A stretch of 64,000 nucleotides of DNA from Methanomassiliicoccales archaeon (GCA_013415865.1 CP058896.1:267957-331956); one strand, 5' to 3'. Counted from the stretch's first letter, positions 10,018 through 31,577 are shown. Translations and numbers: made by a program. Notes: generated by a model from the sequence alone, not told the origin.

Positions 10018-10025
10018 ATCGCTAT

Positions 10026-10125: not shown

Positions 10126-10226
10126 AATTAAACCATTCGATTATAGGTCCATACGAGCGGCATTTATCGAGATGTGATGAGAAAAATATATGATTAGGGG
10201 GAGGAACTTTCTATAATGGTGATGGC

Positions 10227-10568: not shown

Positions 10569-10718
10569 ACAGGCAAGGCACGCCTCCTTTTCCAAAGAAA
10601 TTGATCATCGCCGCCCGAATGTGATGTTGATCAGGATCTGCCATAAGGGGTCGGTGCAGGGGCATTGAGCATCTATTGATAATGCCGACGTTCAGTTGGC
10701 TTGGAGGCCGCTCCTTTT

Positions 10719-11773: not shown

Positions 11774-14700
11774 ATGCACCGAAGGACCATTTCCCTGCTC
11801 ATCTGCATGATGATGCTGATGACACTGACCCCCGTGACGTCGGCCATAGGTTCCAATTCGACAGAGGTCCCGGTCCTAATTACTTCAGGGCCAGATGGAA
11901 TGACGGCAGATCCAGGGAAGGCAGTGCCGACAGGCTACCGCCTTGCCACAGAGGACGACATCTCGCTGATCAAGCTGCAGCTCTTCGGAGACGGTGAGTC
12001 AAACACCTCACTAACGATGGACCTTATGACAGGGGATAGGATGTTCCCCACTGGCCTCCTCATTCCGACCAATGATGAGCTGGATGGGATGGTCGGAAGG
12101 CTGCTCCTGCCAAATGAGGGCGGCCATGTGCTGACGGAGGCCTTCCCAACTTCCTTCGACCTTTCCATCGAGCCTTACTTCCCCCAGATCAGGAGCCAGG
12201 GGAGCGAGGGGTCCTGCGCCGCCTGGGCGATCATCTATTATAACTTCGGTTACCTGGAGGCGGTGGACAACGGGTGGGACGATGCATATCAGGGTAACAA
12301 CGAGCATCTTCTGAGCCCGGCATGGTCGTACAACAAGGTCGTTTACAACGGCTACGGCTCATCGCTGCAGGACAATGCCCTCGTGGCGCAGAGAACTGGC
12401 ATATGCACCTGGGCGGAGATGCCCTATGTGAACGGGGACCATATCAGCTGGGGCGGCGAGACCGCCTGGAGGGGCGCCCCCTTGCATAAGATATCGGACC
12501 AGGTCTACCATCCGTTCTCGGACAGCTCGACCATCGAAAGCATCAAGGAAGCATTGCTGTCGAAGCATCCGGTCAGCATCGCTATCGACGCCACGCCCAT
12601 CAACGGCGCGCAGCCCGCTTTCTCGGACGGAAACAAGATCTTGTCGTCCGCTGAGTACAGCTCGACGACGACGAACCATGGGGTCACCATCGTCGGCTAT
12701 GACGATTCCGTGACGGACGATGGGGATGTCGGCGCCTTCAAGATAGCGAACTCTTGGGGGGCCTCCTGGGGGGAGAACGGATACTTCTGGATGACCTACG
12801 CCGCGATAAAGGAGGTAGGCAACAAGCTCCAGATGACGACCCTGATAGACATCGAGGATAACCGCCCGACGGACCTGGCCGTCTGGCACTTCGACCCTGC
12901 TCCGACGAGGGAGGCGAAGGTGAAGCTCTCTGCGATAAGGGTCTTAGACGGTCTGGTGATGAGCACGGTGGAGCCCTTCTTCGACTGTGGTTCTAGCGAT
13001 AGAATGCCTGATTTTATGGTGCAGGACATCAGCGAGCTATCGCCATACATCCAGGACCAGAGATACAGGATAGACCTTTCTATCGGAGACGGGGCGCTTG
13101 ACGGCAGTGTGTCGTCCTTCAGGCTGGAGAGGTGCGCTATACCATATGTCAATGGAAAGGCGTCGATGGCAAGCGGCCAGTCCCCTGGCGTTCCGTTCCT
13201 CACGCCCGGGCATGCCTCCGTGCAGCTCCTAGGGACCGAGGTAAGCGCCCCTGAGGCGCTGTCCTATGACGGGGCCTTCTCCTTCCTTGGCAACGCGCAA
13301 TGGGTCGGGATGAGGGACGTCAAGGGACGGGAGCATGTCATGAGGAGCGGCGATGTCGGGAACGGCAATTATTCCTCGCTGATCGTCCTCCTGCACGGCC
13401 CCGGGACGTTCACCTTCGATTGGGCGGTCTCGTCCGAGATCAACGTCGACCGTCTTTCTGTCAACATGGATGGTATGCTTAAAGAGAGCATCACGGGAGC
13501 GAGCGATTGGGCCACAAGGTCGATCGAGGTGCCTTCGGGGTTCCATCACATATCCTTCATCTACGCCAAGGACGCGACGGCGAGCGCGAACGACGACTGC
13601 GGCTATCTCGACAATATTTACTGGAATGGAGGGAGGGTCGCGGTCTTTGACGATTTCGAGAATTCTGATCTCACCTGGACATTCGCTGACATGAACCCTT
13701 CCTCGGGCGAGGATTCGTGGAATGGGAGCACCCTCTTCCGCTGGTCTGGCTCAAGGTCGCTATGGTGCTCCGAGGACGGGATGGGGACTAACGGACGGCC
13801 TAACCATCTCAACGGATACTATGATAAGGAGATGGATGCGGTGGCGGTCCTCGCCCTGCCTGACCTTTCGCTCTTCAAGGAGGCGAGGATGTCCTTCGTG
13901 TATTGGGCGGACACCGGCACCACCTCGCTGTCGGACCTGGCCTACGTCAGGGCCCTGGATCATGAAGGTTGGTCCATCATATGGACGCAGCCCTCGCCCG
14001 TTACCACTGGGTGGACGGTGGTGGACCTCCCGCTCCCGGTCGATGTCACGCAGCTAGAGCTGTGCTTCCACAGCGATGATGTCGCAGAGGCAGGGACCCA
14101 TAAGGGGGTGTTCATCGATGCCCTGCTGATGACCGTATGGGAGGAGGAGGTTCCGTCGCCCCCGGTGTCGTCCATCGACCCTCTGCCGAGCTTTTGGAAC
14201 AGGACGTCGCTGAACATGAGCTACACCGCGAGCGCTTACAGCGGGAAGGAGGTGGACCATGTGCAGGTCTTCTTCAGAAAGGGAACATCGGGCAACTACT
14301 CGCTGTATGCCCCGATCTCCAACCCGTCCGGCAACTGGACCTCCGGTATAGTTCAGGTCGAGCTGGAGGGGCTCGGCCTCGGTGAGGGGTTGTATCAGTT
14401 CTACTCGTTGGCATATGACAGTGGTGGGCTTGTCGAGACAGCTCCTTATGCTCCAGATGCATCGACGACCTTCGACCTCGGGGCGCCAGTCACGACGCTG
14501 TCGCACAACGGCAAAGATCCCCCGGCCTGGAATCCCCCGGGCGTGAGGGTGACCTTGAGCGCTGGCGATGCCGTGAGCGGGGTGTCGGCCATATACTACA
14601 AGATCGACAATGGGCCATGGACCTCTTATTCCCTACCCTTCTTCCTGACGTCCCACGGTCAGCATGTCGTCCGATATTATTCGGTGGACAGGGCCGGCAA

Positions 14701-15922
14701 CTCTGATGTTGTGCGGTCGGTCGTCCTGAACATAGACAGCCTCGACCCCGTCTCGACCAGCACCCTGACCGGTGAGGTGGGCGAGGACGGATGGTACATC
14801 GGGCCTGTGGTCGTCAATATCACCTCCACCGACCAGGGCAGCGGGGTGTATCGCATAATATACCGCATCGATGACGGTCCCTGGACCACCTACCGTGGCA
14901 GCTTCATTCTGGACATCGAGGGAAAGGATACGCTGTACTACAGGGCACAGGACCTTGTCGGCAACATCGAGTCCGAGAAATGCGTCATGCTGAGCGTAGA
15001 CTCCGCCCCGCCCATCACGCGGGCATCGATAGAGGGCCCGGGCCTCATCGAAGACAAGATGTTCAACGGCCCGGTCATGATAGCGTTGGCATCGGAGGAC
15101 GCCAGGAGCGGCGTGTCCTTCATAGAGTCCTCATTGGACGGGGGCCCGTGGCTCACATACTCTGGGGCCTTCGTGGTGAGCGAGGAAGGGGCCCATGAGC
15201 TCAGGTACAGGGCCACCGACGGGGCGGGCAACGTGGAGGATATCAAGGCCTTGGCTTTCATGATCGACATGACGTCACCGATGGTCGGAATGGTGGTCAA
15301 TGGCACTTCTGTGAACGAGGGATGGTACGTCGGGGACATAGTGATAGAGATGAATGCCGCGGATGCCCTTTCTGGGATAAAGGGATTGACCTACAGGGTC
15401 GACGGCGGGGACTGGAAGGATGCGGATGGGAGCAATGCCACCATCTTCGTCTCGGGGGAAGGCGGGCATACGGTCGAGTACATGGTCGTCGACCTTGTCG
15501 GGAATGCGCTCTCGTCATCAATCGGGGGGCTGAATATAGACACCATCGCTCCTTCCATTACCTTCGGCGCGGTGGATGGGGCCGTATCGAACACCACGTC
15601 CCTGGACCTGGATGTCTCGGTCAGCGACGCGGGGAGCGGGGTGTCGTCGGTACGATATATATTAGATGGCGGAGAGGAGGTCCTGATGCCGGACGGGACC
15701 GTACATCTGAATGGTCTTACGGAGGGGGGCCATGAGCTCGTGGTGGTCGCGGAGGATGCTGCGGGCAATGTTGCAAGTGCGAGTCTGACCTTCATCGTGG
15801 ACCTACCTGATCCTCCTCTCGAGGAGGATGATGGCCCAGATGAAATGGTGCCGATCGTGATCGCGGCCCTTGCGGGCTTTGCTGCCGTCATCGCCGTGTT
15901 ATTGGTCTTCAGAAGGAAATGA
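11774..15922 (+). CDS. Secreted, C-terminally anchored papain-family (C1) cysteine peptidase with large beta-rich stalk and tandem Ig-like modules
   Basis: 1382 aa with an N-terminal signal-like helix (ISLLICMMMLMTLTPVTSA). The catalytic motifs are QGSEGSCAAWAI (Gln/Cys), NHGVTIVGYDD (His) and ANSWGASWGENGYFWM (Asn-Ser-Trp). The C-terminal TM is VPIVIAALAGFAAVIAVLLVFRRK. Confidence 0.8.
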   Translation: MHRRTISLLICMMMLMTLTPVTSAIGSNSTEVPVLITSGPDGMTADPGKAVPTGYRLATEDDISLIKLQLFGDGESNTSLTMDLMTGDRMFPTGLLIPTNDELDGMVGRLLLPNEGGHVLTEAFPTSFDLSIEPYFPQIRSQGSEGSCAAWAIIYYNFGYLEAVDNGWDDAYQGNNEHLLSPAWSYNKVVYNGYGSSLQDNALVAQRTGICTWAEMPYVNGDHISWGGETAWRGAPLHKISDQVYHPFSDSSTIESIKEALLSKHPVSIAIDATPINGAQPAFSDGNKILSSAEYSSTTTNHGVTIVGYDDSVTDDGDVGAFKIANSWGASWGENGYFWMTYAAIKEVGNKLQMTTLIDIEDNRPTDLAVWHFDPAPTREAKVKLSAIRVLDGLVMSTVEPFFDCGSSDRMPDFMVQDISELSPYIQDQRYRIDLSIGDGALDGSVSSFRLERCAIPYVNGKASMASGQSPGVPFLTPGHASVQLLGTEVSAPEALSYDGAFSFLGNAQWVGMRDVKGREHVMRSGDVGNGNYSSLIVLLHGPGTFTFDWAVSSEINVDRLSVNMDGMLKESITGASDWATRSIEVPSGFHHISFIYAKDATASANDDCGYLDNIYWNGGRVAVFDDFENSDLTWTFADMNPSSGEDSWNGSTLFRWSGSRSLWCSEDGMGTNGRPNHLNGYYDKEMDAVAVLALPDLSLFKEARMSFVYWADTGTTSLSDLAYVRALDHEGWSIIWTQPSPVTTGWTVVDLPLPVDVTQLELCFHSDDVAEAGTHKGVFIDALLMTVWEEEVPSPPVSSIDPLPSFWNRTSLNMSYTASAYSGKEVDHVQVFFRKGTSGNYSLYAPISNPSGNWTSGIVQVELEGLGLGEGLYQFYSLAYDSGGLVETAPYAPDASTTFDLGAPVTTLSHNGKDPPAWNPPGVRVTLSAGDAVSGVSAIYYKIDNGPWTSYSLPFFLTSHGQHVVRYYSVDRAGNSDVVRSVVLNIDSLDPVSTSTLTGEVGEDGWYIGPVVVNITSTDQGSGVYRIIYRIDDGPWTTYRGSFILDIEGKDTLYYRAQDLVGNIESEKCVMLSVDSAPPITRASIEGPGLIEDKMFNGPVMIALASEDARSGVSFIESSLDGGPWLTYSGAFVVSEEGAHELRYRATDGAGNVEDIKALAFMIDMTSPMVGMVVNGTSVNEGWYVGDIVIEMNAADALSGIKGLTYRVDGGDWKDADGSNATIFVSGEGGHTVEYMVVDLVGNALSSSIGGLNIDTIAPSITFGAVDGAVSNTTSLDLDVSVSDAGSGVSSVRYILDGGEEVLMPDGTVHLNGLTEGGHELVVVAEDAAGNVASASLTFIVDLPDPPLEEDDGPDEMVPIVIAALAGFAAVIAVLLVFRRK
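14480..15805 (+). repeat. Five tandem ~85-95-aa Ig-like/beta-sandwich modules inside the C1 peptidase gene
   Basis: A repeated signature D-x-x-SG(V/I)-x4-Y-x-(I/V)DGG(P)W-x-n-G-x-H-x-(V/L)-x-Y-x3-D-x-(A/V)GN occurs five times: DAVSGVSAIYYKIDNGPW..., DQGSGVYRIIYRIDDGPW..., DARSGVSFIESSLDGGPW..., DALSGIKGLTYRVDGGDW..., DAGSGVSSVRYILDGGEE.... Confidence 0.6.
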
Positions 15923-17199: not shown

Positions 17200-17262
17200 T
17201 CTTTTGATCAAAATTATATCGAATTTCATTAATATTACCATCGCTCTTCCCATTTTTCATCG

Positions 17263-20200
17263 TTGCGTGGGGAGAACGATATTGTGGGGGTCAATGATAA
17301 TTTTCAGAATTGCCCATGGTTTTTCCCTTGCCATACCTCGTCCATGGTCATGAGCTCGGTATTAAAATTGATCCGATGTGATGATTATTCTGATGATAAA
17401 TTAAGAAAATTATCGGCCCACTCATCTGGTTTTTCAATAATTGGAGAAAGGGAAATTGAAAATACAGAAGTGGATGAAGAAAGGGCGTTCCTGGCGGCGG
17501 TCCTTTCCAAGATCTATCAAAGGGGCAGTCCTTCACCCTGCAGTCTAGAGACCGAGAGAAGGTTGCTGATGAGATGTCAGGAGCTTTCTATTTTGAAATT
17601 TGAGGAGTCCAATAGGTCTGGCAGCATTGTATTCGATGTGACGGGGTCGGTCGAAGGTCTTTCCTCGATGCTCGAATCTTGTTTCTTCCCGGAGCTGTTG
17701 GTCGAGGGTAAGGATCTCGATGGCCTCATCGAACTGTACCTCTCAATATGTACCGGGCCTGAAAAGGAATTCTTCAATAAGATATGCAGCGCGCTCCCTC
17801 TCAAGAATCTGGCCTTGATGATAGTTCCCCAAAGGACCTTCAGATCGATGGGGATCGACGGGCATGTGTCGGAACGCGTGGATTTCGCTATCGAGGTACC
17901 TGACCTCGACCGAGGGGGCTGGCTCAAAATAGTCATCGAGATAGACGATTCCAGCCACAATTCTACTCAGTTCAAAGATAAGCAAAGGGACAAAGACCTC
18001 AGCAACGCCAAATGGAAAGTATATAGATTGAGGACCAATGAAAAACATAAATGGGACCGAGCGGTCGAGAACATTGCCATAGATCTGATCACCGCAGTAA
18101 CTCCGAATATAATCGAGGCCTCGGTCCGGCTTAATAAAATGGAAGAGAAGCGGAGAAACGCCATCAGAGATATGGTCCTGGTGCCCATGGCGGAATCCAA
18201 GATTGCGTTTTTGGCATCTCGAGGATTGGTCCGAAATGTTGGACAGGGGATCATTGTCAAATCACCTCGAAATTTAGACCTTGAGCCGGCAGTTAGATCT
18301 GTTATGGACACGATCCGCCACATCATTTCGCTTTATAATCTCAATGTCCATTTCAAAGTGAAGTTGGGACCTGAAGGGACTGTCGATTATTATGCCTGTC
18401 CCCATCCTTCGATGTGGAGCTCGGTCGATCCGGGCGAGCGGCTCTGTCCGATCGTTGTGTCACCGGAAGTTGTGGAACGTATGATCGTTGCTGACCCGGT
18501 CCCGTTGTATTACAAAGGATTCGAGGAGACCGTTGACAGGTCCCTCAGATTCTTCCTTCAGAACATATTTAGAAAATATGATTTCAGATATGGTCAGCTT
18601 GAGATAATCCGGAGAGCTCTTTCCCTGGAACATGTGGTCGGTCTTCTTCCCACCAGCGGAGGGAAGTCCCTCTGCTACCAATTATCCTCAATTCTACAAC
18701 CAGGAATATCGGTCGTGATCGATCCTTTACGGTCCTTGATCGTCGATCAGGTCGACAATCTGAACAGAATGGGGATGGACAGGATCGGGGTCATCATAAG
18801 CAGAGGTAGAAAGAACATCTCGGAAGAATCGGCCTTGAGAGAGAAAGTGATGGATAATATGATGGGCGGGATGTATCAGTTCATCTTCATCGCCCCTGAG
18901 AGGCTCCAGATCCAAAAATTCAGCAAGTTGATAATGGAGCAGATCGAGATACCGATAACATATTGCGTGGTGGATGAGGCGCATTGCGTAAGTGAATGGG
19001 GCCATGATTTCAGGACCTCGTATCTGAACGTCGGTAGAAGGTTCGCTGAGAGGGACATTGACAGACCCAATTGGAGGACCCACTTCATCGCATTGACCGG
19101 GACGGCCTCCAGGAATGTTCTGGTCGACATCATGAGAGAATTGATGATTGAGGACGAGGAGGCCATAGTCGAACCCAGGTCCTACGACCGTCCAGAATTG
19201 CATTTTTCCGTTGTGAAGGTAAGTAAAGAAGAAAGGATCGGAACGATCGTGAGGTTGGTGAGCAGGATCGTTGAAAAGAATTTTTATGAGTCCAGAAAGG
19301 TCCCGTCTGGCCTGATCTTTACAAATTTCGCTGGCAGCGAGATAGGGGTCATCCCATTAAAAAACGCCATAAGGTCGGAATTGAGCGGTGTGAAGGTCGA
19401 TTGTTACGCCGGAAAGAATCCGGAGAATCGGGACAATAACGAAACGATGAAATGCGATTGGGAGGATCAAAAGATCAATGTCCAATCGGATTTTAAAAAC
19501 GGCGCGGTCGATATATTGACGTGCACCCACTCATTTGGCATGGGTATCGATAAGCCTGACATCAGATTTACGATCAATGCCATGTTGCCCCGTTCCATCG
19601 AGGAATTCTATCAGCAGGCGGGAAGGGCAGGCAGGGACGGAAATGACTCGGACTGTTATCTGGTGTTCTCCGATGACGAACCCGGTCTCAGTGACCAGAT
19701 ATTGGATGATAATAGGACTCCGCTTGACGATATCTCATTCAGGGTCAATAATCTGGACTGGGAGCGGAGGGATGATGCCCTGCATAATACCTGGTTTCTC
19801 TCGGCTGCATTTCAGGGAGTGGAGGAAGAGAAACAACAGCTGAGATATTTGCTCAGAAGGGAGATCGAATTGGTATTGAAGGATGAATCGAAGCTCAGGG
19901 TCACCAGCATTCCCTTCCTTCTCAGTCGAAAAGACCCGTTCAACGGAAAGGACGAGACTGTCCTAGAAAAAATAATCTACAGGCTCCAGACGATCGGGGC
20001 GATCAGGGATTATTACAAAGATTACAATGGTCAAAAATTCACCCTGCACCTGATCGAATTCGATTCAAGTTCGATCTACGAACAAACAAGAAAACACCTC
20101 GGAAGATACATTTCCGAAGGAGAGATAGAAAAGCGTCTGGGAAGGGCATCCCGATCGGACCCTTATGAGGCCGTTGAGCATTGTGGTGGCGTCCTCATCG

Positions 20201-20793
20201 ATTTCATTTACGATAAAATCGTGAAAAGACGAAGAAGGGCCATGCACCAGATGCTTGAGCTTGCGAGGGTAGGGACCGTCGACATCGACAGGTTCAAGCT
20301 GGATATGCTCGCATTCTTAGAAGAATCGGAGTTCACGAAGCCGGTGGCCGGTCTTAGCTTGAGCGATGACCCGGATGCATGGCTCGAGATCCTGGAAAGA
20401 TTGGATGGCGTAGACTCGATGAGAAAGCTTCTGGGGGCGTGCAGGAGACAGTTAGAGGAAACGCCTGGACATCCCGGGTTGCTGATAATGGCCGGGTTCT
20501 GTGCCCTGAGCTATTCGAATGTGGCCAATGGCATGAAGGACCTTAAGAACGGATTATTTGCCTTGAAAGATTCTGTTTCGGACGATCATACCATAATGAA
20601 GACGGTCGAGAGGTTTTTCGAGATCTCGGAAAGGGTCCAGCCCTCGAAAAGAGAGTACATTCTCGAGGCGCTTCTGGAGCTTGGGATGCCGGATGTTGAT
20701 AGGTTCGTTTACAAGAGGTCCGGTCAATTTGGATACGCGCATCTGACCAGTCTTGTTAAGATCACTTCGGAGCTGGGGATCGGGAGAGAATAA
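17263..20793 (+). CDS. RecQ-family SF2 helicase with N-terminal PD-(D/E)xK-like (DUF2726/DUF559-like) module and unassigned C-terminal domain
   Basis: The helicase motifs are LLPTSGGKSLCYQL (I), VVDEAHCVSEWGHDFR (II), LTGTAS (III), HSFGMGIDKPDIRF and QQAGRAGRDG (VI). The N-terminal module is RVDFAIEV..KIVIEIDDSSH..KQRDKDLSNAKWKVYRL. No RQC/HRDC is recognisable. The start lies somewhere between TTG 17263 and ATG 17344, and a TATA-like AAATTATATC sits at 17211-17220. Confidence 0.8.
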   Translation: MRGENDIVGVNDNFQNCPWFFPCHTSSMVMSSVLKLIRCDDYSDDKLRKLSAHSSGFSIIGEREIENTEVDEERAFLAAVLSKIYQRGSPSPCSLETERRLLMRCQELSILKFEESNRSGSIVFDVTGSVEGLSSMLESCFFPELLVEGKDLDGLIELYLSICTGPEKEFFNKICSALPLKNLALMIVPQRTFRSMGIDGHVSERVDFAIEVPDLDRGGWLKIVIEIDDSSHNSTQFKDKQRDKDLSNAKWKVYRLRTNEKHKWDRAVENIAIDLITAVTPNIIEASVRLNKMEEKRRNAIRDMVLVPMAESKIAFLASRGLVRNVGQGIIVKSPRNLDLEPAVRSVMDTIRHIISLYNLNVHFKVKLGPEGTVDYYACPHPSMWSSVDPGERLCPIVVSPEVVERMIVADPVPLYYKGFEETVDRSLRFFLQNIFRKYDFRYGQLEIIRRALSLEHVVGLLPTSGGKSLCYQLSSILQPGISVVIDPLRSLIVDQVDNLNRMGMDRIGVIISRGRKNISEESALREKVMDNMMGGMYQFIFIAPERLQIQKFSKLIMEQIEIPITYCVVDEAHCVSEWGHDFRTSYLNVGRRFAERDIDRPNWRTHFIALTGTASRNVLVDIMRELMIEDEEAIVEPRSYDRPELHFSVVKVSKEERIGTIVRLVSRIVEKNFYESRKVPSGLIFTNFAGSEIGVIPLKNAIRSELSGVKVDCYAGKNPENRDNNETMKCDWEDQKINVQSDFKNGAVDILTCTHSFGMGIDKPDIRFTINAMLPRSIEEFYQQAGRAGRDGNDSDCYLVFSDDEPGLSDQILDDNRTPLDDISFRVNNLDWERRDDALHNTWFLSAAFQGVEEEKQQLRYLLRREIELVLKDESKLRVTSIPFLLSRKDPFNGKDETVLEKIIYRLQTIGAIRDYYKDYNGQKFTLHLIEFDSSSIYEQTRKHLGRYISEGEIEKRLGRASRSDPYEAVEHCGGVLIDFIYDKIVKRRRRAMHQMLELARVGTVDIDRFKLDMLAFLEESEFTKPVAGLSLSDDPDAWLEILERLDGVDSMRKLLGACRRQLEETPGHPGLLIMAGFCALSYSNVANGMKDLKNGLFALKDSVSDDHTIMKTVERFFEISERVQPSKREYILEALLELGMPDVDRFVYKRSGQFGYAHLTSLVKITSELGIGRE

Positions 20794-20794
20794 A

Positions 20795-21673
20795 ATGCCA
20801 TTGGAAACAAATGAGGAATCGCGGCGGGAGCTGATATTGAAGGCGGAAGAAGCGATACGACTGCTTGCGGAAGAATATGGAAAGGCATGTCAAGTATCAA
20901 ATTTCGCAAAAGAATCGCTGGACAGGATCACCGAGGCCAGAAACACCCTGACTGAAGCATTGTCATTGATAGAGAACGCGCAGATGAACCTTATTGAGGA
21001 CTCCAATAGGTCCAGGGAGGCTCTGGAATCTGCCAATAAGAGAAACGAGGAGGTCCGAGTAAGTCTTTTATCCTCTCTCGTCACGATCGAGAGGCTGGAC
21101 AAGGAGGTCCAGTTGCTTCAGAGGGACCTGTCCTCGGCGATCACGGAGCTCAAGAGAAGAGACAAAGAGATCTTGGACCTGATGATCGAGAATAACGAGA
21201 ATATAGTTTCTACCATCGAAAAATTGAGCGGGTCGGTCCAAGTAATTTTTGATGAGCTTAAGAAAAATTACGCACAATTGACCCTGTTGATAGAACAGGG
21301 GGATAGATCAATTCAGGATCTGATAAAAGACCGGGAACTTAAGTTGTCCTTTAAGATCGATGAGAGCGGATCGAAGATCGTAAATGACCTTGCTGCGTTG
21401 AAAGAGAAGCTTGAAAACTATTATGGGCAGATGGTCAATAATTTCAAAGATACAAATCAGGAAATTACGCTCAAGAACGAGCTGTTGGTATCTTTATTGA
21501 AGACGGAATACGAGAGCCTCATCGAAAGGTTCGAACGATTGGACAAAGAGAGCAAGGCCCGTCACGAGGAAGTGATGAACAAGCTTGAGCTTGCCCGATA
21601 TGCAGCAGTGTTCTCGGCCATATCTGTGGTAGGGATCGCTGGAGTGTTGATAATTTTGTTCATGGGAGGGTAA
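20795..21673 (+). CDS. Tail-anchored coiled-coil protein, partner of the helicase
   Basis: ATG 20795 is 1 nt after the helicase stop codon. The 292-aa protein is almost entirely charged heptad-like helix (EEAIRLLAEEYG..., LDKEVQLLQRDLSSAITELKRRDKEILDL...). It ends in a single TM, AAVFSAISVVGIAGVLIILFMGG. Confidence 0.6.
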   Translation: MPLETNEESRRELILKAEEAIRLLAEEYGKACQVSNFAKESLDRITEARNTLTEALSLIENAQMNLIEDSNRSREALESANKRNEEVRVSLLSSLVTIERLDKEVQLLQRDLSSAITELKRRDKEILDLMIENNENIVSTIEKLSGSVQVIFDELKKNYAQLTLLIEQGDRSIQDLIKDRELKLSFKIDESGSKIVNDLAALKEKLENYYGQMVNNFKDTNQEITLKNELLVSLLKTEYESLIERFERLDKESKARHEEVMNKLELARYAAVFSAISVVGIAGVLIILFMGG

Positions 21674-21677: not shown

Positions 21678-21685
21678 TTTTTTTT
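21678..21685 (+). terminator. Oligo-T (T8) terminator candidate after the helicase/coiled-coil pair
   Basis: TTTTTTTT begins 5 nt after the stop codon of the coiled-coil gene. Archaeal termination typically uses oligo-T tracts. Confidence 0.4.
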
Positions 21686-21798: not shown

Positions 21799-23310
21799 GT
21801 GCTCGGTCGTAAGTCCTTACTTGTGTTCCTCGGCAGCACGATATCCTCTGCCCTGGGGTTCATCTGCCTGTTCTTCATAACCAACTACGTCGGGGTGGAC
21901 AAGTACGGCACCGTCATCCTGATGACCTCCATACTTACAACGATAAACGTCATCGCGGACCTGGGCTTCTCGAGCGCGCACATCAAGAGGATATCCGAGG
22001 GTCAGGACGTCGACGATTGCGTCTCTACCTTCGTCCTGATAAAAATTAATTTGACCTGCCTGTTCGTCATAGCGTCGTTCCTTGCGCTGTTCATCTGGAT
22101 GGCGGCGCTTGGGAGGACCATCACCGACGTATCTAGGGATGTCTTCCTGGTGATGCTGCTGTTCGAGGTGTTCGTGAACCTATCGAACATCGCCGTGATA
22201 ACATTCCAGGGAAGGAGCGAGGTCGCGAAGGTCCAGTTCCTGCAGATACTGAACCCGTTGGTGCGGTTGCCTTTGGTGGTGCTCATCGCGTTCGCAGGGT
22301 CCAGCGCGGTTTTGCTAGCGGTGACCTACATGCTCGGCGCGATGGCGATGATGATAGCCTCATTTTTAATGATCAAGAGGGCGAGGTTCAGATGGAAGAG
22401 GCCCACCCTGTTCCGTTCGTACCTGACCTTCACCGTCCCGATCATCGTTGTGACGATAGTGTCGACGTTGTATCTCAACATCGACAAGATCATCATAGGA
22501 CTGGCGATAGACAACGTCCACGTTGGTTATTATTCGACCGTGCAGACGTTCCTTGGTGTCATCGCGGCCATCGGGACAGCGGTGTCCGTACTTACGTTCC
22601 CGAACTTCTCGTACCTCTTCGGCCAAGGTAGGGTCTCGGAGGTAAGAGAGAAGGCCTTGGCCGCCGAGAGGTATATATCGATGGTCTCGCTGCCGTTGGT
22701 CATTGTGCTGGTCATGTTCCCAAGTGAGGTACTGTCGACGCTGTTCGGCCCTGACCTTGCTGAAGGCGGGGATGCGCTGAGGTTCCTTGCCATTGGAACC
22801 TATATTGTGATGATAAATCAGCCGTACAGCTCGCAGCTGCTTGCGGCGAACAGGCCAGATATACTTGCGAAGAGCACGATAATAGGGTTTGCCATCGGGA
22901 CGGGCCTCTTCCTGCTTCTGATCCCGAAGGAGCTCTATGGAATAAGCACGATGGGGATGGGACTGGCCGGGGCAGGGATCGCAATAATAATGTCGAACCT
23001 GGGCCAGACGTTAATTGTAAGAAGTGCGGCGAAGGGGCTTTCAGGTTTAGCGCTCAACATGAGAATGTCACTTCAATTCTTGACGGCAATTTTCATTGGA
23101 ATATTATCACATGTTGTTTTCTTTTTAATGGATATCGAACCGTTCTTATCTATCCGATTATTTTTTGTAGTATTGGGCATCCCAGTTTTATTTTATACTT
23201 TATTGATTATATTTAACGAAGTTTCAAAAGAAGATATAAAATATTTTAAAGAATTAATAAATATTAAAAAAATGGTCCAATATATTATAAATGAAGCGCG
23301 AAATAAATAA
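21799..23310 (+). CDS. Wzx-like oligosaccharide/polysaccharide flippase (MOP/MATE-like superfamily)
   Basis: 503 aa with at least 12 hydrophobic helices. The N-terminal pattern SSALGFICLFFITNYVGVDKYGTV...DLGFSSAHIKRISEG is typical of polysaccharide biosynthesis (Wzx) proteins. The last ~90 codons switch to very AT-rich codon usage. Confidence 0.7.
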   Translation: MLGRKSLLVFLGSTISSALGFICLFFITNYVGVDKYGTVILMTSILTTINVIADLGFSSAHIKRISEGQDVDDCVSTFVLIKINLTCLFVIASFLALFIWMAALGRTITDVSRDVFLVMLLFEVFVNLSNIAVITFQGRSEVAKVQFLQILNPLVRLPLVVLIAFAGSSAVLLAVTYMLGAMAMMIASFLMIKRARFRWKRPTLFRSYLTFTVPIIVVTIVSTLYLNIDKIIIGLAIDNVHVGYYSTVQTFLGVIAAIGTAVSVLTFPNFSYLFGQGRVSEVREKALAAERYISMVSLPLVIVLVMFPSEVLSTLFGPDLAEGGDALRFLAIGTYIVMINQPYSSQLLAANRPDILAKSTIIGFAIGTGLFLLLIPKELYGISTMGMGLAGAGIAIIMSNLGQTLIVRSAAKGLSGLALNMRMSLQFLTAIFIGILSHVVFFLMDIEPFLSIRLFFVVLGIPVLFYTLLIIFNEVSKEDIKYFKELINIKKMVQYIINEARNK

Positions 23311-24051
23311 TAATTCTATTTAAATATTGGGGTAATCATAATTAAATCATTGTGATATGAAAAAAATATTCTTGACATTCAACTAGCCAGGCTAGTGATA
23401 TAAATAATAGTGTATCTAAGAAATTAAACTTCCTCCTTCATACTTTCTGTAATTTATTAGGGAGCAATCAGGCGTAATGGGTTTATACATTAAGATAATA
23501 TTAATATAGTAATATTCTAAATAGAGCGTTAAAATATCTCGAGGGCACATATTTTTTCGAAAGACGAATGATATAAAACCTCGATATACGCAATTTCAAA
23601 GCTTGAAGGTTCTGTAACAGCGGTTATTGTAGCTATTATACTAAAACTATTTTTATGATCGGTGTTAACCTTATAAATTATACTAAGTTCCAAACATCGT
23701 TCGACAATCCTTTGGATCAAAATTTATAATAAAGGGACGGCATGTGAAACGAGTGATGTTGAATTTATAAAATATGGCTCTAGCATGTCTTACCGAATGT
23801 GATGAAATATTAAAATTAAATAGAGATTATATAATGTTTCCTCCTCGAAAAAATTGAAGTGTCTGATGCTAAATAATATTCTTTATTTGTTTCTTCATTT
23901 TATCCTTTTTTAAAATGGCGTTTAAAAAAAATACATGAATAAATTATATAAAACAAAATTATCTGCGTATAATAGATTAAATAAATCTTTAATTTTATAG
24001 TCGACTCGATGTATAAGATTGGGTAATTTTAAATTGAAAATCGGTGAAAAT

Positions 24052-25446
24052 ATGCATGTAACTGCAATAATTTTAGCTGGTGGTGTCGGGAAAAGATTTG
24101 GGCTTGATGTACCAAAACAATTTGTAAAGTTAGCTGGTAAACCAATTATTTCGCATACCATTGACATATTTGAGAAAAATAGTATGATTAAAGAAATTAT
24201 AATTGTAGTTAATAAAGAATATTATAATTATTTAAATAATCTAGTAAAAAGTGGCCACGATTCAAATAAAATTAAAATAGTGGTAGGTGGTGATACTCGT
24301 CAAGAATCTTCATTCAATGGATTATTAGCTTGTTCAAAAAGTACTACTCACGTACTAATACATGATGCTGTTCGTCCATTTATAGACCAAGAAATTATTT
24401 ATGAATGCATTTTGAAACTTGAAGAATATGATGCAATTGATGTATGCATTGATTCGTCAGATACTCTAGTCGAAATTAATGAAAACAATGAAATCATCAA
24501 AATACCAAATAGAACGTCGATTAAAAGAGGACAAACCCCCCAAGCTTTTAAATTTGATGTGATTTTTAATGCACATAAAATATGCCAATCAAAGGGAATA
24601 CAGAATTCTACGGATGATTGTAACCTTGTATTACAATCAAATTTATGCAAAATACATGTAATCAATGGATCAAACCATAATATAAAGATTACTAATCCTA
24701 TTGACATCTCAATAGCAGAGAAAATTTTTCAAATTAGAGAGAAAAAAAGTCAATTGCTTAGTTATGATGATTTATTGCATAAATTGAATAATAAAGTGAT
24801 AGTAGTTGTGGGAGGAAGTTCTGGAATAGGTAAATCAATATGTGAGATTGGGAACAAACTTGGATCTGTTACCATCCCTTTGTCTAGATCTAATGGATTT
24901 GATGTTAGAAATCCAGAAACCATTAAATTTCATCTAAGTAAAATTTATAAAAAATATGAAAGAATCGATGCTGTAGTGATATGTGCGGCAATTCTCCATC
25001 GAAATAAATTTGAAAACTTTACCGATGATGAAATTAGAGAATTAATAGAAATCAACTTGACTGGGAATGCATATGTGGCAAAATATTCTATACCATATTT
25101 AAAAAAGACAAATGGCAAATTAGTTTTTTTTGCTTCGAGCTCATATTATAAGGGAAGGGGCGAATATTCGACCTATAGCGCAACAAAAGCTGGAATAGTA
25201 AATTTAATGCAATCGTTATCCGAGGAATTAGAGGACAAGGTTAGCGTTTTGGCCATTAATCCTCAAAGAACGAAGACACCATTAAGAACACGTAACTTTG
25301 GGGACGAGGATATAGATACATTGTTATCTGCGGATTTTGTAGCGTTATCCACATTAAATTCAATTGCTAAGGAAGGGAACAATGGTTGCATAATCGATAT
25401 AAGATTGTCGGACGAAAAAAAAGGAAGCCTTAAATATAATGAATAG
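24052..25446 (+). CDS. Bifunctional IspD/TarI-like cytidylyltransferase + short-chain dehydrogenase/reductase (CDP-ribitol-synthase-like architecture)
   Basis: Start at ATG 24052 (MHVTAIILAGGVGKRFGLDVPKQFVKLAGKPII = IspD/TarI nucleotide-binding loop). The C-terminal half has the SDR motifs VVGGSSGIGKS (TGxxxGxG-like) and YSATKAGIVNL (YxxxK). Confidence 0.75.
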   Translation: MHVTAIILAGGVGKRFGLDVPKQFVKLAGKPIISHTIDIFEKNSMIKEIIIVVNKEYYNYLNNLVKSGHDSNKIKIVVGGDTRQESSFNGLLACSKSTTHVLIHDAVRPFIDQEIIYECILKLEEYDAIDVCIDSSDTLVEINENNEIIKIPNRTSIKRGQTPQAFKFDVIFNAHKICQSKGIQNSTDDCNLVLQSNLCKIHVINGSNHNIKITNPIDISIAEKIFQIREKKSQLLSYDDLLHKLNNKVIVVVGGSSGIGKSICEIGNKLGSVTIPLSRSNGFDVRNPETIKFHLSKIYKKYERIDAVVICAAILHRNKFENFTDDEIRELIEINLTGNAYVAKYSIPYLKKTNGKLVFFASSSYYKGRGEYSTYSATKAGIVNLMQSLSEELEDKVSVLAINPQRTKTPLRTRNFGDEDIDTLLSADFVALSTLNSIAKEGNNGCIIDIRLSDEKKGSLKYNE

Positions 25447-26752
25447 ATTTAAATTTATTTTAAATAACTAGGTTCAGATATTTATTTTTGGATAATACAG
25501 TATTTTCCACTTCTTCAATTAAGATAGATATTTAATCGTAATGTGAATATTGTGATTTGGATGCACTTCATGGTTAAAGATACATCAGCTGCGATATGGG
25601 AATATATAGCTGCCCTATGGAGTTTATATTGATAAGCCTCTTTGGGGGATTTTCAGATATATGCGAAGAGATTGATTCTCGGCAAAGATGGCTATATAAA
25701 TATTAAATATATCGTCTCGTTCGCATTTAATATTGGCTCATAGCGCTCGCTCAATCGGTTCTATCTTCTCTCTGGAAATGGAGCTCGCAAAATTGACCAG
25801 ATGAAATCGAGGATGACGATGCAAGGAAAAAAGGGTGGTTTTTCGGTCGTTAATCACACATTGATTGAAAAGACCCAGAAGCAAATTGTCGGCAGGTTTG
25901 ATTTACAATCATTATGAGGATAGAAGCGTATGATTTTACAACTTTGTGGATTGTCCTAATTCGATAGGACCGGATACGGTTTCTTTTTCCTATTAGAACT
26001 ACCTAAAGTATAATTTGGCAAGGAAGATAAATTGATTTTCAAGACGAGGGTTGAACTAGCCGTCCAGTTAATTTAGAAGGTAAAATGCTGGAGCGATCGG
26101 ACTTCTTTCTATTCGGTGCCCAAATTGGAGGAATTGGGTGTAACGTTCAATCTTGTCGATGATGCCATGTTTCCTTTAAGAGGCTCAATCTAATCTTTTC
26201 GACGAGTTAGAAGGCCAAGTGATGTGGCTGGTGTAGGTGTTCCCACTATTGAATCTGAACGATTCCTGGAAGCTTGACGACCATTATTAGGAGGGTTACG
26301 ATCGTTTCTATGAGTTCTTCATGGAGCTGGGCAAATGTCTGGAGAAGGTTAAGGTCGATTTCGTGACTGTCGGCAAGCATTTTCGAGCGACTATCTCGGA
26401 CTAGTTGGAGATGTGCAGAGAATGGGATGGAAAAGTGTAATGTGAAGTGGAAGATTGCAGATGTTCTACCGAGACCACAAGCCGTACCCCGAATATGTGA
26501 ATATCAGGTCAGAAAGATTGGTATAAGAGTTATGAATCTCCTTTTAAGTTATTATAACCTACAATATCCTAAAAGGTATTGATCAGTGCCTCGAAATTCA
26601 AAAATCAAATTAAATGGTGTATACGCCATCTAGCTTTTTTGCCAAATACAGAAACATTGAGCGTTGCAGGGATTGATTTTCAACGATTAGATGGTTGAAA
26701 TTGTAAAAGTGTGGTATAAAATAAATAATAATAGAAGAATTTCGATTTATCC
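25447..26752. other. 1.3-kb ORF-free, stop-riddled segment of intermediate GC (probable decayed gene remnants)
   Basis: The track has no ORF of 60 aa or more in any frame across 1.3 kb. G+C is visibly higher than in the surrounding island genes. My translations give only short fragments (e.g. MELGKCLEKVKVDFVTVGKHFRATISD) separated by stop codons. Confidence 0.35.
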
Positions 26753-27793
26753 ATGGATGTACAAAATAATAAAACAATATGGATAGATTTAAAATGTCCT
26801 TCAGATGTTCATTTTTTTTATTCTGTTATGATTAATTTAAATAAGTTTCGGTATTTAATAACGACTCGAAAAAGAGCTGAAACACATCAATTGTCTATTA
26901 ATTATGGAATGAAAGGAATTCAAATAGGTTCTGATCATCAAAATCACTTATTGAAGGGCATGTATTATTTTGATAGGACCTTCAAACTTTCAATGATAAA
27001 AAAAGAATTTGATGCAATATTCTCATTTGAAGATGCGATTGGTCCAATATTAGGAAAATTTAAAAATAAGCCATCATATTTATTTTGCGATAATGATTTA
27101 AAATTGAATAAATCTTTTTCTAAATTTCAAAAAATAGAATCTAAGTTTAAGAATTTTGCAGATTATTTAATTATTCCTGAAATTTCTATTAAAGAATTTA
27201 TTAATAATTATTCAAATCCTAAAATAATAACATATAATGGCTATAAAGAAAATATTTATATCTCAGATTTTGAGCCGGATCCAAATTTTGATTTATTGGA
27301 TTACATTCCAAATTACGTATTAATACGTCCAGAAGCCATAGGGTCATTTTATGTTGCAGAAAAAAAGAGTATAGTTCCTCAGATTGTAAAATTATTAAAA
27401 AAAGAAAATTTTAACATAGTATATTTGCCTCGCGATCCTCAAGATTTTAGCTATGTTTCTAAAGATGAAGTTTTTATTCCTCCCAAAATTTACAAGGGTT
27501 TGGATTTGTGTTATCACAGTCAGGCAGTGTTAACTGGTTCCGGAACATTAGCTAGAGAGGCGGCAATTCTCGGTAAGACCTCAGTATCTTTTTTTCCTGG
27601 TTCAAAATTATTATCGGTAGATTCAGATTTAATAAGAAAGAAAAAAATGATTCACACTAGAGATCCTAAAGAAATCGTCAATTATATTTTAAATAGTAAA
27701 GAAGATAAAAATTACAATTATAAAACTAACTCAATAAAAGTGCGCGATGAGTTGATATCGAAATTAGGTGAAACATTAGATGAAGAGTTGTGA
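26753..27793 (+). CDS. DUF354-like GT-B-fold protein (putative glycosyltransferase/epimerase-like)
   Basis: 346 aa. The N-terminus KTIWIDLKCPSDVHFFYSVMINL matches the characteristic start of archaeal DUF354 proteins as I remember them. The C-terminal segment AVLTGSGTLAREAAILGKTSVSF is GT-B-like. Confidence 0.5.
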   Translation: MDVQNNKTIWIDLKCPSDVHFFYSVMINLNKFRYLITTRKRAETHQLSINYGMKGIQIGSDHQNHLLKGMYYFDRTFKLSMIKKEFDAIFSFEDAIGPILGKFKNKPSYLFCDNDLKLNKSFSKFQKIESKFKNFADYLIIPEISIKEFINNYSNPKIITYNGYKENIYISDFEPDPNFDLLDYIPNYVLIRPEAIGSFYVAEKKSIVPQIVKLLKKENFNIVYLPRDPQDFSYVSKDEVFIPPKIYKGLDLCYHSQAVLTGSGTLAREAAILGKTSVSFFPGSKLLSVDSDLIRKKKMIHTRDPKEIVNYILNSKEDKNYNYKTNSIKVRDELISKLGETLDEEL

Positions 27794-31565: not shown

Positions 31566-31577
31566 AGGGAGTTTAAA

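Follow-up and report, generated by a model that had tools for sequence, protein, structure and literature searches.

We describe here a two-gene cassette (positions 17263 to 21673, plus strand) in a 64,000-nt stretch of a Methanomassiliicoccales archaeon genome (hereafter, the window), in which a Vsr-like nuclease module and a RecQ-type helicase core share one polypeptide that is followed by a small tail-anchored, coiled-coil-like protein. Judging from the sequences, we see about an even chance that this pair is a horizontally acquired anti-virus or anti-plasmid system whose helicase-nuclease is held at the membrane by its coiled-coil partner, with genomic context being what suggests the defence role. 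An earlier note on this DNA had proposed an undescribed two-gene helicase-nuclease defence system, and the proposal is supported, having survived comparisons that bear on core-gene status, nuclease identity, co-conservation of the two genes, and likeness to named systems.

Gene organization, composition, and pairing

The helicase-nuclease gene (17263..20793, plus strand) is a 1176-aa open reading frame that runs, as first described, from TTG 17263 to a stop codon at 20791-20793, and its full-length homologues are ~1200 aa long at 37-42% identity. The deposited annotation (P0001) is 1107 aa, and its start falls 3′ of an N-terminal CPW motif (17311-17319) that is conserved among homologues; because this motif precedes the deposited start, TTG 17263 or GTG 17284 is the better choice. 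Upstream lies an AT-rich intergenic leader (17200..17262, plus strand; 29% GC, computed), which is presumed to be the archaeal promoter region of the operon.

By codon composition, the gene pair is foreign to its host. GC is 0.483 in the helicase gene (GC3 0.59) and 0.456 in the partner gene (GC3 0.587), versus 0.57-0.59 (GC3 0.76-0.77) in the upstream protease and aminotransferase genes and a GC3 of 0.72-0.87 in other host-like genes. The lower G+C that had been claimed for the block relative to its flanks is thus clear on the upstream side, while the downstream edge is blurred by a flippase gene of intermediate GC3 (0.67), followed by an 11-kb stretch at 25% GC.

The partner gene (20795..21673, plus strand) starts at ATG 20795, a single nucleotide after the helicase stop, and encodes a 292-aa helical protein with 35% charged residues, one proline, and a strong 3.5-residue hydrophobic periodicity (z = 8 versus shuffles). 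Its C-terminal transmembrane anchor, AAVFSAISVVGIAGVLIILFM (21602..21664), ends two residues before the C-terminus, the terminal 19-residue window having a Kyte-Doolittle mean of 2.69. A T8 run (21678..21685, plus strand) lies 5 nt past the partner stop and is a probable terminator, as oligo-T is a transcription termination signal in archaea. The spacing, the charged coiled coil with its C-terminal transmembrane helix, and the T8 run are all as the earlier note had read them. Among 23 aligned partners (alignment A5), the terminal hydrophobic helix is present in every one (Kyte-Doolittle 2.1-3.3), and the only conserved soluble stretch is the first ~25 residues, with A17 and E18 invariant and L15, L24, A25, and E27 conserved in at least 90%. 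Partner length varies from 114 to 292 aa, with nothing else conserved beyond this stretch and the anchor.

Across the family, a helical, C-terminally anchored protein is encoded directly after the helicase in 28/39 non-redundant loci of archaea and bacteria, its start lying between -38 and +5 nt relative to the helicase stop codon, versus 0/43 ordinary RecQ loci used as controls, which answers the question of co-conservation posed at the outset. Distant relatives from other phyla (30-39% identity over part of the protein) still keep such a downstream gene. By script criteria, an adjacent partner is absent from the other 11 loci, among them that of protein P0030; three of these are technical misses (a contig-end cut, a frameshifted helicase, and a divergently encoded partner). 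Because of these 11 loci, the partner appears to be dispensable in some lineages, and in partnerless lineages, the helicase C-terminus is remodelled and ~250 aa longer. The 255 proteins retrieved included no Rosetta-stone fusion of partner and helicase.

Domains of the helicase-nuclease

The central part of the protein is a RecQ-type SF2 helicase core of two RecA-like lobes (18553..19719, plus strand), from which the Zn-binding, RQC, and HRDC regions are absent. NCBIfam recQ_fam TIGR00614 scored 235.7 bits (cut-off 219.8) with only model positions 3-338 of 470 aligned, and recQ TIGR01389 aligned solely over 4-345 of 591, such that RecQ models cover only their first ~340 positions; Pfam DEAD and Helicase_C also match the core. 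The motifs quoted in the earlier note as a complete RecQ-type core are all present, and K468, D571-E-A-H574, T612/T614, G759/G761/D763, and Q784/G787/R788/G790/R791 are invariant in 42 homologues. The missing RQC/HRDC tail was likewise borne out, since Pfam RQC, HRDC, and RecQ Zn-binding families gave no match on the 1176-aa protein even at E ≤ 1.

Residues 1-430 (17263..18552, plus strand) form an N-terminal module with an alpha/beta head, a Vsr-like nuclease core, long helices, and a small alpha/beta domain. By sequence and modelled fold, we identify this module as a predicted nuclease of the Vsr/DUF559 type, a resemblance that had been suggested before. Its core (17875..18030, plus strand) carries RVD207F, IE226ID228DSSH232, D239KQR242, and W251KVYR255. 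The residues of the motif proposed earlier are present, but its spacers (x12 and x8) were wrong, and the actual arrangement is RVDFAIEV-x9-KIVIEIDDSSH-x7-KQRDKDL. Pfam DUF559 scored 23.2 bits on the full protein (cut-off 20.6), and a profile matched the DUF559 structure PDB 3hrl (E=9.4e-5). An AlphaFold2 model of the module from M28 on (17344-18537), built with a 15-sequence alignment, reached a pLDDT of 85.7 and a pTM of 0.87, and its sole meaningful Foldseek match in the PDB was 3r3p_B, the Vsr-like catalytic domain of the homing endonuclease I-Bth0305I (probability 0.91, TM 0.66). As to whether catalytic residues are kept within this modelled fold, D207, E226, D228, H232, and D239 are invariant in 42 sequences (ORF numbering), as are W251 and R255, and R242 is nearly so (at least 90%). 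Residues ~205-256 thus share sequence, fold, and a D...ExD..H...D..R pattern with DUF559, Vsr, and EDxHD nucleases (3hrl; 3r3p), which occur as small proteins on their own or as domains of homing endonucleases, whereas here the core sits inside a 430-residue module fused to RecQ-type cores. A profile search with this module against 1.84 billion representatives returned 129 clusters at E<1e-30, a number that rose to 656 with the threshold at E<1e-10; in most cases the module lies N-terminally in a protein of 1150-1500 aa.

The C-terminal domain (residues 827-1176; 19741..20790, plus strand) comprises a winged-helix-like element and then an all-helical repeat, and includes the signature motifs KRRRRA (20224-20241) and GACRRQLEE (20434-20460). 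Its AlphaFold2 model (pLDDT 86.0, pTM 0.69) showed only generic TPR/helical-repeat likeness in Foldseek searches of the PDB, none at E<0.001, and sequence searches of Pfam, PADLOC, and the PDB gave no match, in line with the helical domain without recognised motif that had been claimed; for these 350 aa, no known relative was found.

Known systems, distribution, and neighbourhoods

No entry describing a helicase-nuclease paired with an anchored partner was found in PADLOC, NCBIfam, or the literature. PADLOC matches on the window helicase (DpdF and PsyrT) cover the helicase core only, and the N-terminal module, C-terminal domain, and partner, each scanned alone, gave nothing significant. The closest approach to the named-system match that the earlier note wished checked is a DpdF sub-model, PDLC02868 (1078 positions), which aligned over 17-1002 with one enterobacterial relative (1.8e-111), thereby covering the whole architecture, and showed a weak alignment to the nuclease region of the window protein. 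DpdF belongs to the Dpd island for 7-deazaguanine DNA modification/restriction, in which it is the RecQ-like helicase; its PADLOC models scored highest (up to 2.6e-76), whereas the NCBIfam DpdF equivalog scored 136 bits on the window helicase against a 550-bit cut-off. Neither a TGT-like dpdA nor other dpd genes occurred among the window neighbours scanned or at relatives' loci, and we know of no tail-anchored partner in the Dpd gene set.

Helicases joined in one polypeptide to a PD-(D/E)xK or Vsr-type nuclease also occur in defence islands as Hhe, ARMADA, some Druantia YprA helicases, Hna, and Nhi, with Vsr-type fusions to defence helicases documented for ARMADA and Druantia (PMC12458937). 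These are SF1 or YprA-type with a C-terminal nuclease, unlike the RecQ-type core and N-terminal nuclease seen here, and ARMADA and Druantia have no obligatory membrane-anchored partner. Models of Hhe, Hna, and Nhi were not among the best 25 of 32 PADLOC helicase matches (the other 7 all at E>0.003), nor in a scan of the helicase N-terminal region alone, and to our knowledge these three systems also have no obligatory membrane-anchored partner.

The anti-phage pair PsyrTA (RqlHI), a RecQ-like helicase toxin with its antitoxin, is the basis of an alternative that we consider possible but doubtful, namely a toxin-antitoxin or abortive infection system in which the helicase-nuclease is a genotoxic toxin inhibited or sequestered by the anchored partner until infection activates it and host and viral DNA are destroyed together. 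Both are two-gene operons that join a small partner to a potentially genotoxic helicase whose SF2 core is RecQ-type but without RQC/HRDC, and PADLOC PsyrT matched the window helicase core at 8.5e-55. Russell and Mulvey are said to have found in 2015 that the partner RqlI keeps in check the genotoxicity of RqlH, a RecQ-like helicase, a precedent for such an arrangement. Overlapping reading frames would suit the stoichiometric co-expression typical of toxin-antitoxin pairs, an enterobacterial relative has an extra ShosA/PsyrA-like DprA-family gene and a ShosT-like segment, and another relative has the toxin DarT (4.3e-24) joined to its helicase C-terminal domain, its partner gene lying upstream in divergent orientation. 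However, the PsyrT model aligns over just positions 9-350 of its 689, a stretch confined to the generic RecQ core, PsyrT has neither the Vsr-like module nor the winged-helix/helical-repeat domain, and the PsyrTA partner is DprA-family, whereas no DprA-like gene accompanies the window pair. The effector-first gene order and a tail-anchored, long-rod partner without PADLOC match are both unlike PsyrA, and intact helicase-nucleases without a partner in several lineages are hard to square with an unrestrained toxin.

Anti-virus or anti-plasmid defence finds its main contextual evidence in the neighbourhoods of relatives. Homologues at 37-42% identity occur in Methanoregula, Thermofilaceae, Armatimonadota, Bacillota, and others, and their surroundings overall include BREX, type I R-M, DISARM-like, CRISPR, ShosTA, and Mza genes. 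The clearest defence island is that of P0030 (BREX, a GajB-like gene, type I R-M), yet this is a partnerless locus; DISARM-like DrmB/DrmC adjoin two homologues, ShosTA lies beside another, a CARF gene accompanies the family member on a Rhodothermus plasmid, and an integrase-flanked E. coli island carries type I R-M, nucleases, and Mza. The DarT fusion in one relative, the foreign composition of the window pair, and the sporadic occurrence of the E. coli variant also count in favour of this reading. PADLOC matched 362 families among 109 neighbour ORFs versus 22 among 112 control ORFs, figures that count families, not genes, and are inflated by many redundant models per family. In the window, the genes directly flanking the pair have surface-glycan and protease functions rather than roles in defence, and an AbiL pair lies 15 kb downstream. 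A search of IMG/VR viral contigs found no family member, which is neutral for defence and lends no support to a prophage hotspot.

Members on Rhodothermus, Klebsiella, and E. coli plasmids, one relative in an element-like context (ArdC, PolB-like, and SRAP genes), and another near a Mu-type transposase and ParB, together with the foreign composition of the window pair, would also fit a function for mobile elements themselves, such as membrane DNA processing in transfer or entry, exclusion of competing elements, or stabilisation of the carrier, and a membrane tether would suit DNA passing through an envelope channel. We regard this as unlikely: many copies are chromosomal, among R-M, BREX, DISARM-like, CRISPR, and Mza rather than transfer genes, and neither a relaxase nor a coupling protein nor a replication gene is a regular neighbour. 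That members travel on mobile elements does not discriminate, because defence systems typically do so too, and excluding competing elements is in practice the same activity as defence.

Less probable still is a housekeeping or stress-related repair or recombination helicase, i.e., a RecQ paralogue placed at the membrane that nicks mismatches through its Vsr-like domain and handles, for example, DNA taken up from outside. Both RecQ helicases and Vsr endonuclease are classically known from DNA repair, the NCBI name of the protein is 'RecQ family ATP-dependent DNA helicase', one bacterial copy lies among rho, L31, and RF1 genes, and two lineages carry an associated DprA-family gene. Those DprA-family genes, however, score as ShosA (1.9e-65, 2.7e-69), a defence antitoxin type, and the RecQ-specific regions are missing. 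The earlier note had asked whether orthologues are syntenic core genes; instead, neighbours differ at every locus examined, the family is scattered patchily over the phyla, the window pair has foreign codon usage, a three-gene variant occurs on plasmids and chromosomes in just 7/5426 complete E. coli genomes (0.13%), and the neighbourhoods are defence-rich, unlike those of true RecQ genes.

A possible mode of action at the membrane

Under the preferred defence reading, the first gene would encode a single-polypeptide effector made up of a RecQ-type DNA translocase driven by ATP, a Vsr-type (PD-(D/E)xK-fold) endonuclease at the N-terminus, and the C-terminal domain, and the second a tail-anchored protein whose entire helical rod is cytoplasmic. 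We propose that partner residues 10-31, RRELILKAEEAIRLLAEEYGKA (20822..20887, plus strand), form a docking helix on the helicase C-terminal domain, because the partner's first ~25 residues and transmembrane helix are what is conserved and because partnerless lineages have a remodelled helicase C-terminus. The anchor would then fix the complex at the inner face of the cell membrane, and rod length (114-292 aa; at most roughly 15-40 nm fully extended) may set the reach of the enzyme. Foreign DNA entering at the membrane would expose free ends or single-stranded stretches, on which the RecQ core could load and translocate while the Vsr-like nuclease nicks or cuts, and two paired rods could bring two nicking domains together and convert nicks into double-strand breaks. 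The chromosome would be spared by spatial confinement and by its lack of such entry substrates.

This spatial discrimination of self from non-self may be likened to Zorya, whose ZorAB membrane complex has a long coiled-coil tail and works with soluble ZorC/ZorD helicase-nuclease (PMC11946911). The analogy, a membrane component with a long cytoplasmic coiled coil plus a DNA-targeting helicase/nuclease, is functional only: ZorAB is MotAB-like and multi-subunit, whereas the window partner is single-pass and tail-anchored with essentially no extracytoplasmic part, its similarity to ZorA models is compositional only (E about 1e-3), and the helicase families differ. No named immune system matched the cassette, which turns up repeatedly beside established antiviral genes across numerous bacteria and archaea, E. 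coli included.

Gene pair and anatomy of the helicase-nuclease

The helicase-nuclease gene and its partner are two adjoining ORFs on the forward strand, the first running from TTG 17263 to the stop at 20791-20793 (1176 aa) and the second from ATG 20795, 1 nt past that stop, to 21673 (292 aa), with a T8 run at 21678-21685 (+) after the partner gene, all as an earlier note, a reading of the sequence alone, had placed them. The motifs it quoted are likewise all found in the ORF, although the nuclease motif has spacers of x9 and x7 where the note gave x12 and x8. By exact-match look-up, the deposited names are 'RecQ family ATP-dependent DNA helicase' (1107 aa) and 'hypothetical protein'. The deposited helicase start lies 69 codons 3' of TTG 17263 (window positions 17263-17470) and is probably too far downstream, since it cuts off a stretch kept at the N-termini of homologues, with a CPW motif at 17311-17319. 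The low G+C reported for the block is evident at third codon positions (GC3 0.59 for helicase and partner vs 0.76-0.77 for the two upstream genes and 0.72-0.87 in other host-like genes), while the downstream compositional edge is blurred by a flippase gene of intermediate composition and then an 11-kb glycan-synthesis island of ~25% GC. A scan for sigma-70 promoters and hairpin terminators, a model inapplicable to an archaeon, stayed near what shuffled sequence gives (11 promoter-like sites against 6.6 ± 2.4, and 4 terminator-like sites against 4.2 ± 2.2).

Residues ~431-819 form a RecQ-type SF2 core, in which Pfam finds DEAD and Helicase_C and which passes the NCBIfam recQ_fam model TIGR00614 (235.7 bits vs a cut-off of 219.8); the RecQ-type motifs I-VI, including the ATPase motifs, are invariant across 42 homologues. 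The recQ equivalog scores 259.8 bits, below its cut-off of 640.2. The HRDC domain is a feature of bacterial RecQ proper, and the earlier reading of a helicase that has no RQC/HRDC tail was correct: RecQ models align over their first ~340 positions only (3-338 of 470 for TIGR00614 and 4-345 of 591 for TIGR01389), and the Pfam families RecQ_Zn_bind, RQC, and HRDC give no match even at E ≤ 1. After the core, residues 827-1176 (hereafter the C-domain; pLDDT 86 in the AlphaFold model) are predicted to form a winged-helix-like element, in which RQC similarity is not detectable, and then an all-helical repeat. This agrees with the helical domain of no recognisable motif described before, and no relative of the C-domain turned up in Pfam, in PADLOC, or among PDB sequences, nor any of significance among PDB folds.

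The PD-(D/E)xK-like module proposed for the N-terminal extension held up by profile, structure, and conservation. A Vsr/DUF559-type nuclease lies at the centre of residues 1-430 (hereafter the N-module; PF04480, 23.2 bits vs a cut-off of 20.6), the module's profile matches the DUF559 crystal structure 3hrl (E = 9.4e-5), and DUF559 is also present in Rhodothermus and Klebsiella relatives. Only one PDB entry meaningfully resembles the AlphaFold2 model of the N-module (pLDDT 85.7, pTM 0.87), namely the homing endonuclease I-Bth0305I in its Vsr-like catalytic domain (3r3p_B; Foldseek probability 0.91, target TM 0.66, rmsd 3.8 Å). The Foldseek E-value of this match is weak (0.59), an effect of querying with a model of 398 residues in four parts. 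Across the 42 homologues, residues D207, E226, D228, H232, D239, W251, and R255 do not vary and R242 is kept in at least 90%, and the D ... ExD..H ... D..R pattern that most of them make up is preserved in alignments A1 and A4. With nuclease and ATPase residues thus conserved, both activities are predicted to be intact.

The tail-anchored partner and its coupling to the helicase

The 292-aa partner is 35% charged with one proline, has a strong hydrophobic periodicity of 3.5 residues (z = 8 against shuffles), and carries a single TM helix, a hydrophobic helix that stops two residues from the C-terminus, all of which fits the charged, coiled-coil-like protein with one C-terminal TM helix of the first description. 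The partner is accordingly a tail-anchored protein, and its rod must lie in the cytoplasm. A single-sequence search found only the partner itself, and a profile search of a 5.8-billion-protein database found only 7 proteins, the word index being poor for low-complexity helical sequence; the family was recovered by reading the DNA downstream of homologous helicases. Its members range from 114 to 292 aa and share an N-terminal segment (consensus R-x-E-[IV]-L-x-A-E-x-A-[IV]-R-x-L-A-x-E-L-A) and a terminal TM helix (23/23 aligned partners), while the middle varies in length and sequence. The partner of a distant bacterial relative (locus L136, 13680-14258) contains a near-exact internal tandem duplication of ~50 residues (DAKNSARTIQESANNIVRGT...), which shows how the length of the rod changes.

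To count pairings, helicase C-termini were clustered at 90% identity, and an ORF qualified as a partner if it started -95 to +60 nt from the helicase stop, encoded 100-330 aa poor in Pro/Gly, and had a hydrophobic helix at its end but none inside. A 6-sequence subset of the C-domain alignment retrieved 45 loci from metagenomes, the 17-sequence alignment being too diverse for locus searching; a contig scan with the full-length alignment keyed on generic RecQ motifs, and the ordinary RecQ genes it returned were reused as controls. The coiled-coil gene proved co-conserved: a qualifying ORF was present at 28 of the 39 non-redundant family loci and at 0 of 43 ordinary RecQ loci. Actual partner starts fall -38 to +5 nt from the helicase stop, frequently as an ATGA overlap, and the arrangement is kept in relatives from a bacterial genome of 6.6 Mb, a Bacteroidia MAG, and a Bacillota-like contig, whose alignments reach only 30-39% identity and in part span less than two-thirds of the protein. 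Cultured organisms keep it too. Plasmids of Rhodothermus marinus have a 1243-aa DUF559-RecQ protein followed by a 202-aa partner (N-terminus MNEGDRILEAERQIRQLAEEL) with a TM helix at its C-terminal end. In Klebsiella, Raoultella, and E. coli, replicons carry a gene for a 1558-aa relative (hhalign probability 96% for the N-module and 95.7% for the C-domain) and, after it, one for a 162-aa helical tail-anchored protein. As a homologue of the partner, this 162-aa protein was rejected (hhalign probability 4.6%); it is an architectural analogue whose homology is not demonstrable.

Eleven loci had no adjacent partner by these criteria. Among them is a group whose helicases carry an acidic, partly helical C-terminal extension of ~250 aa, namely the 1400-1470-aa helicases without a TM partner at L113-L119, L121, and L123 (e.g., L114 7440-13179); those of L113-L119 and L123 are followed by a 456-aa ATPase_2/DUF234 ATPase that matches the PADLOC candidate PDC-S27 (2.2e-34). 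Another is the metagenome locus L112 (734-5869), where the helicase is divided between two ORFs (818 and 658 aa), its C-domain bears a fused domain of the ssDNA ADP-ribosyltransferase DarT (Pfam 4.3e-24), and the partner is encoded divergently, upstream. Two more are a partner running off a contig end and a frameshifted helicase, and the remaining few are simply without a partner. A partner-helicase (Rosetta stone) fusion was sought among the retrieved proteins, and none of the 255 of at least 1000 aa ends in a TM helix.

Genomic setting and comparison with known systems

Neighbours differ in every family locus, and the pair is therefore not a syntenic core feature; conserved core-genome synteny was the outcome that the earlier note had held to be incompatible with its proposal. 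A housekeeping repair role for this RecQ-type enzyme is, in our assessment, very improbable. A location in defence islands or the accessory genome, on the other hand, is recurrent. One family locus has BREX, a GajB-like helicase-nuclease, and a type I R-M system nearby, DISARM-like DrmB/DrmC adjoin two homologues (one in another Methanomassiliicoccales MAG), a ShosTA pair adjoins the helicase pair in locus L137, DNA methyltransferases lie near some loci, and a CARF gene lies near the Rhodothermus plasmid copy. In E. coli ET846, the cassette sits in an integrase-flanked island that also holds type I R-M on the upstream side and, downstream, the Mza system along with two nucleases. Around 21 family loci, 109 ORFs of at least 200 aa lie within 8 kb, and these gave matches to 362 PADLOC families (E ≤ 1e-10), vs 22 for 112 ORFs around 13 ordinary RecQ genes under the same procedure, a crude comparison of redundant models, not genes, that is meaningful in direction only.

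A function for a mobile element itself was also weighed, and we regard it as improbable. The enterobacterial cassette occurs in 7 of 5426 complete E. coli genomes, as three chromosomal and four plasmid copies, two of them disrupted by IS elements. A 6-sequence C-domain search of IMG/VR viral contigs found no family member, and phage records gave core-only RecQ matches and no family member. Around the pair in the window (17.2-21.8 kb), direct or inverted repeats that might mark insertion boundaries were limited to short chance-level matches, and no tRNA or Rfam RNA gene was found in the window as an integration-site marker.

In the window, the pair is immediately flanked by genes for a papain-like surface protease and an aminotransferase on one side and for a glycan flippase on the other. 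The protease (11774-15922), encoded just before the aminotransferase, has 1382 aa, with a cysteine protease domain of the papain family towards the N-terminus and bacterial Ig-like (Big_13) repeats towards the C-terminus, and is presumably secreted or on the surface. Further upstream, 4010-11594 (-) holds four ORFs of 685, 250, 352, and 291 aa with no significant Pfam family, the 291-aa ORF giving only weak transglutaminase-core and zinc-ribbon hints. Downstream, at ~23300-34000, the 11-kb block (22-36% GC; gene GC3 0.17-0.24 vs 0.72-0.87 for host-like genes) encodes an IspD-SDR fusion, DUF354, several GT4 glycosyltransferases, LicD, and a 518-aa protein without a Pfam match, and has the look of a surface-glycan/teichoic-acid-like cluster that was acquired from a donor very rich in A+T. 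A complete AbiL pair lies at 36311-37998 (-), 15 kb downstream of the helicase pair, its 439-aa AAA_21 ATPase matching PADLOC AbiLi (1.7e-98) and its 161-aa RloB-like protein AbiLii (4.6e-25); with a GC3 of 0.54-0.58, it is compositionally as atypical as the helicase pair.

The claim that the pair belongs to no named system survived comparison with PADLOC (2023), where matches were limited to the helicase core (DpdF up to 2.6e-76, PsyrT 8.5e-55), and where N-module, C-domain, and partners scanned alone gave nothing significant except compositional coiled-coil matches. No description of the pair was found in the literature, including by accession numbers of cultured-organism proteins, or in the DefensePredictor and BREX-diversity papers. 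For Dpd, the DpdF equivalog NF041063 gave 136.4 bits on the helicase vs a cut-off of 550, and a Pfam scan of the window neighbours (not every small ORF) showed glycan-synthesis genes, a protease, an aminotransferase, transport genes, and AbiL only, with no dpdA (TGT-like) or other dpd gene. The PADLOC DpdF sub-model PDLC02868 covers the full architecture of the enterobacterial relative, so automated tools may label such genes orphan 'DpdF', and the sub-model captures proteins outside Dpd islands.

PsyrTA/RqlHI supplies the main rival explanation, a toxin-antitoxin arrangement in which the partner restrains a genotoxic enzyme. The similarity of PsyrT to the helicase core and the ShosA/ShosT-like additions in enterobacteria speak for it, whereas intact helicases without a partner speak against it. 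The PsyrT model PDLC03928 aligns only to positions 9-350 of 689, the generic core, and the window pair has no adjacent DprA-family PsyrA gene, the neighbours being the aminotransferase and the partner. A ShosA/PsyrA-like gene was found in the enterobacterial variant and next to L137 only. We consider this explanation unlikely, albeit one to be taken seriously.

The enterobacterial variant (L140 2687-8774; L141 12001-18088, E. coli ET846 NMD57_RS09600-09610) has three genes, for a ShosA/PsyrA-like DprA-family protein, the 1558-aa protein, and the 162-aa tail-anchored helical protein, and the 1558-aa protein reads N-terminal HAD domain, ShosT-like segment, then DUF559-RecQ-C-domain. Together with L137, it suggests that ShosTA-type modules are recurrently linked with the helicase family. 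In the homologous protein P0159 (2086 aa), PknA/PknB-like Ser/Thr protein-kinase domain(s) (residues ~310-910; E about 1e-14) precede the nuclease module, a further case of a sensor or effector grafted onto this scaffold.

Hhe is another defence helicase fused to a Vsr-type nuclease. Hhe/Hna/Nhi models were absent from the best 25 of the 32 PADLOC families matched (the other 7 have E > 0.003), and the N-terminal 431 residues, when scanned by themselves, matched none at E ≤ 1. Vsr-type nuclease fusions to defence helicases are also established in ARMADA and Druantia (PMC12458937). All three involve other helicase families, with a C-terminal nuclease and no known membrane partner, whereas here a RecQ core has its nuclease N-terminal and is accompanied by a partner. 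The nearest functional analogy is Zorya, in which a membrane-anchored coiled coil is coupled to a helicase-nuclease (PMC11946911), but Zorya is unrelated to the pair in sequence and far more complex. The window partner, with its one TM helix, matches 0 PADLOC families at E ≤ 1 and does not correspond to the MotAB-like ZorA/ZorB membrane complex; two partner homologues show weak coiled-coil similarity to ZorA tails (E 6e-4 to 5e-3).

A possible membrane-positioned mechanism and its meaning

Together, these comparisons show parts that are predicted intact, coupled, and evolving as a unit in defence neighbourhoods. The observation made in the earlier note is confirmed, and its defence interpretation is supported as far as computation reaches. 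New candidate defence systems are often reported; this one is a candidate defence gene of the helicase-nuclease kind, distinctive for its three-part architecture and for a tail-anchored partner that looks obligatory.

We favour direct, membrane-localised restriction, a chain of steps that, taken jointly, stands about evenly balanced between right and wrong. The N-terminus of the partner would dock on the C-terminus of the helicase, which we infer from the partner's sole conserved soluble segment being N-terminal and from the altered helicase C-terminus where the partner is lost. The tail anchor would then hold a processive RecQ-type translocase with a Vsr-type nicking domain at the inner face of the membrane, where envelope-entering DNA may offer ends or single-stranded stretches for loading. 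Coiled coils rise about 0.15 nm per residue, and rod length would set the reach of the enzyme at 15-40 nm at most, while dimerisation of the rod could pair two nickases to make double-strand breaks.

More tentatively, and with the balance clearly against it, the family might represent a new class of immunity common to archaea and bacteria that discriminates self from non-self spatially. A tail-anchored coiled-coil 'ruler' of evolvable length would keep the RecQ-Vsr enzyme within a fixed distance of the membrane, so that only envelope-entering DNA would be unwound and cut, and N-module, RecQ core, and C-domain would form a platform onto which DarT, ShosT-like, and kinase effectors were grafted.

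If validated, the pair would give a function to the ~430-residue N-module, which occurs in at least 129 distinct 50%-identity clusters (E < 1e-30) and has so far been annotated only as 'RecQ family helicase'. Tractable members are at hand in the pair on Rhodothermus marinus plasmids and the three-gene variant in seven complete E. coli genomes. To our knowledge, the antiviral repertoire of the Methanomassiliicoccales is little explored, and validation would place one of these archaea among the carriers of a defence system that spans archaea and bacteria. Such a system would join a motor that degrades DNA to a minimal tether with a single membrane pass, and would allow a clean test of a question raised by Zorya and Kiwa, both far more complex machinery, namely whether positioning at the membrane can take the place of self/non-self discrimination based on sequence or modification.
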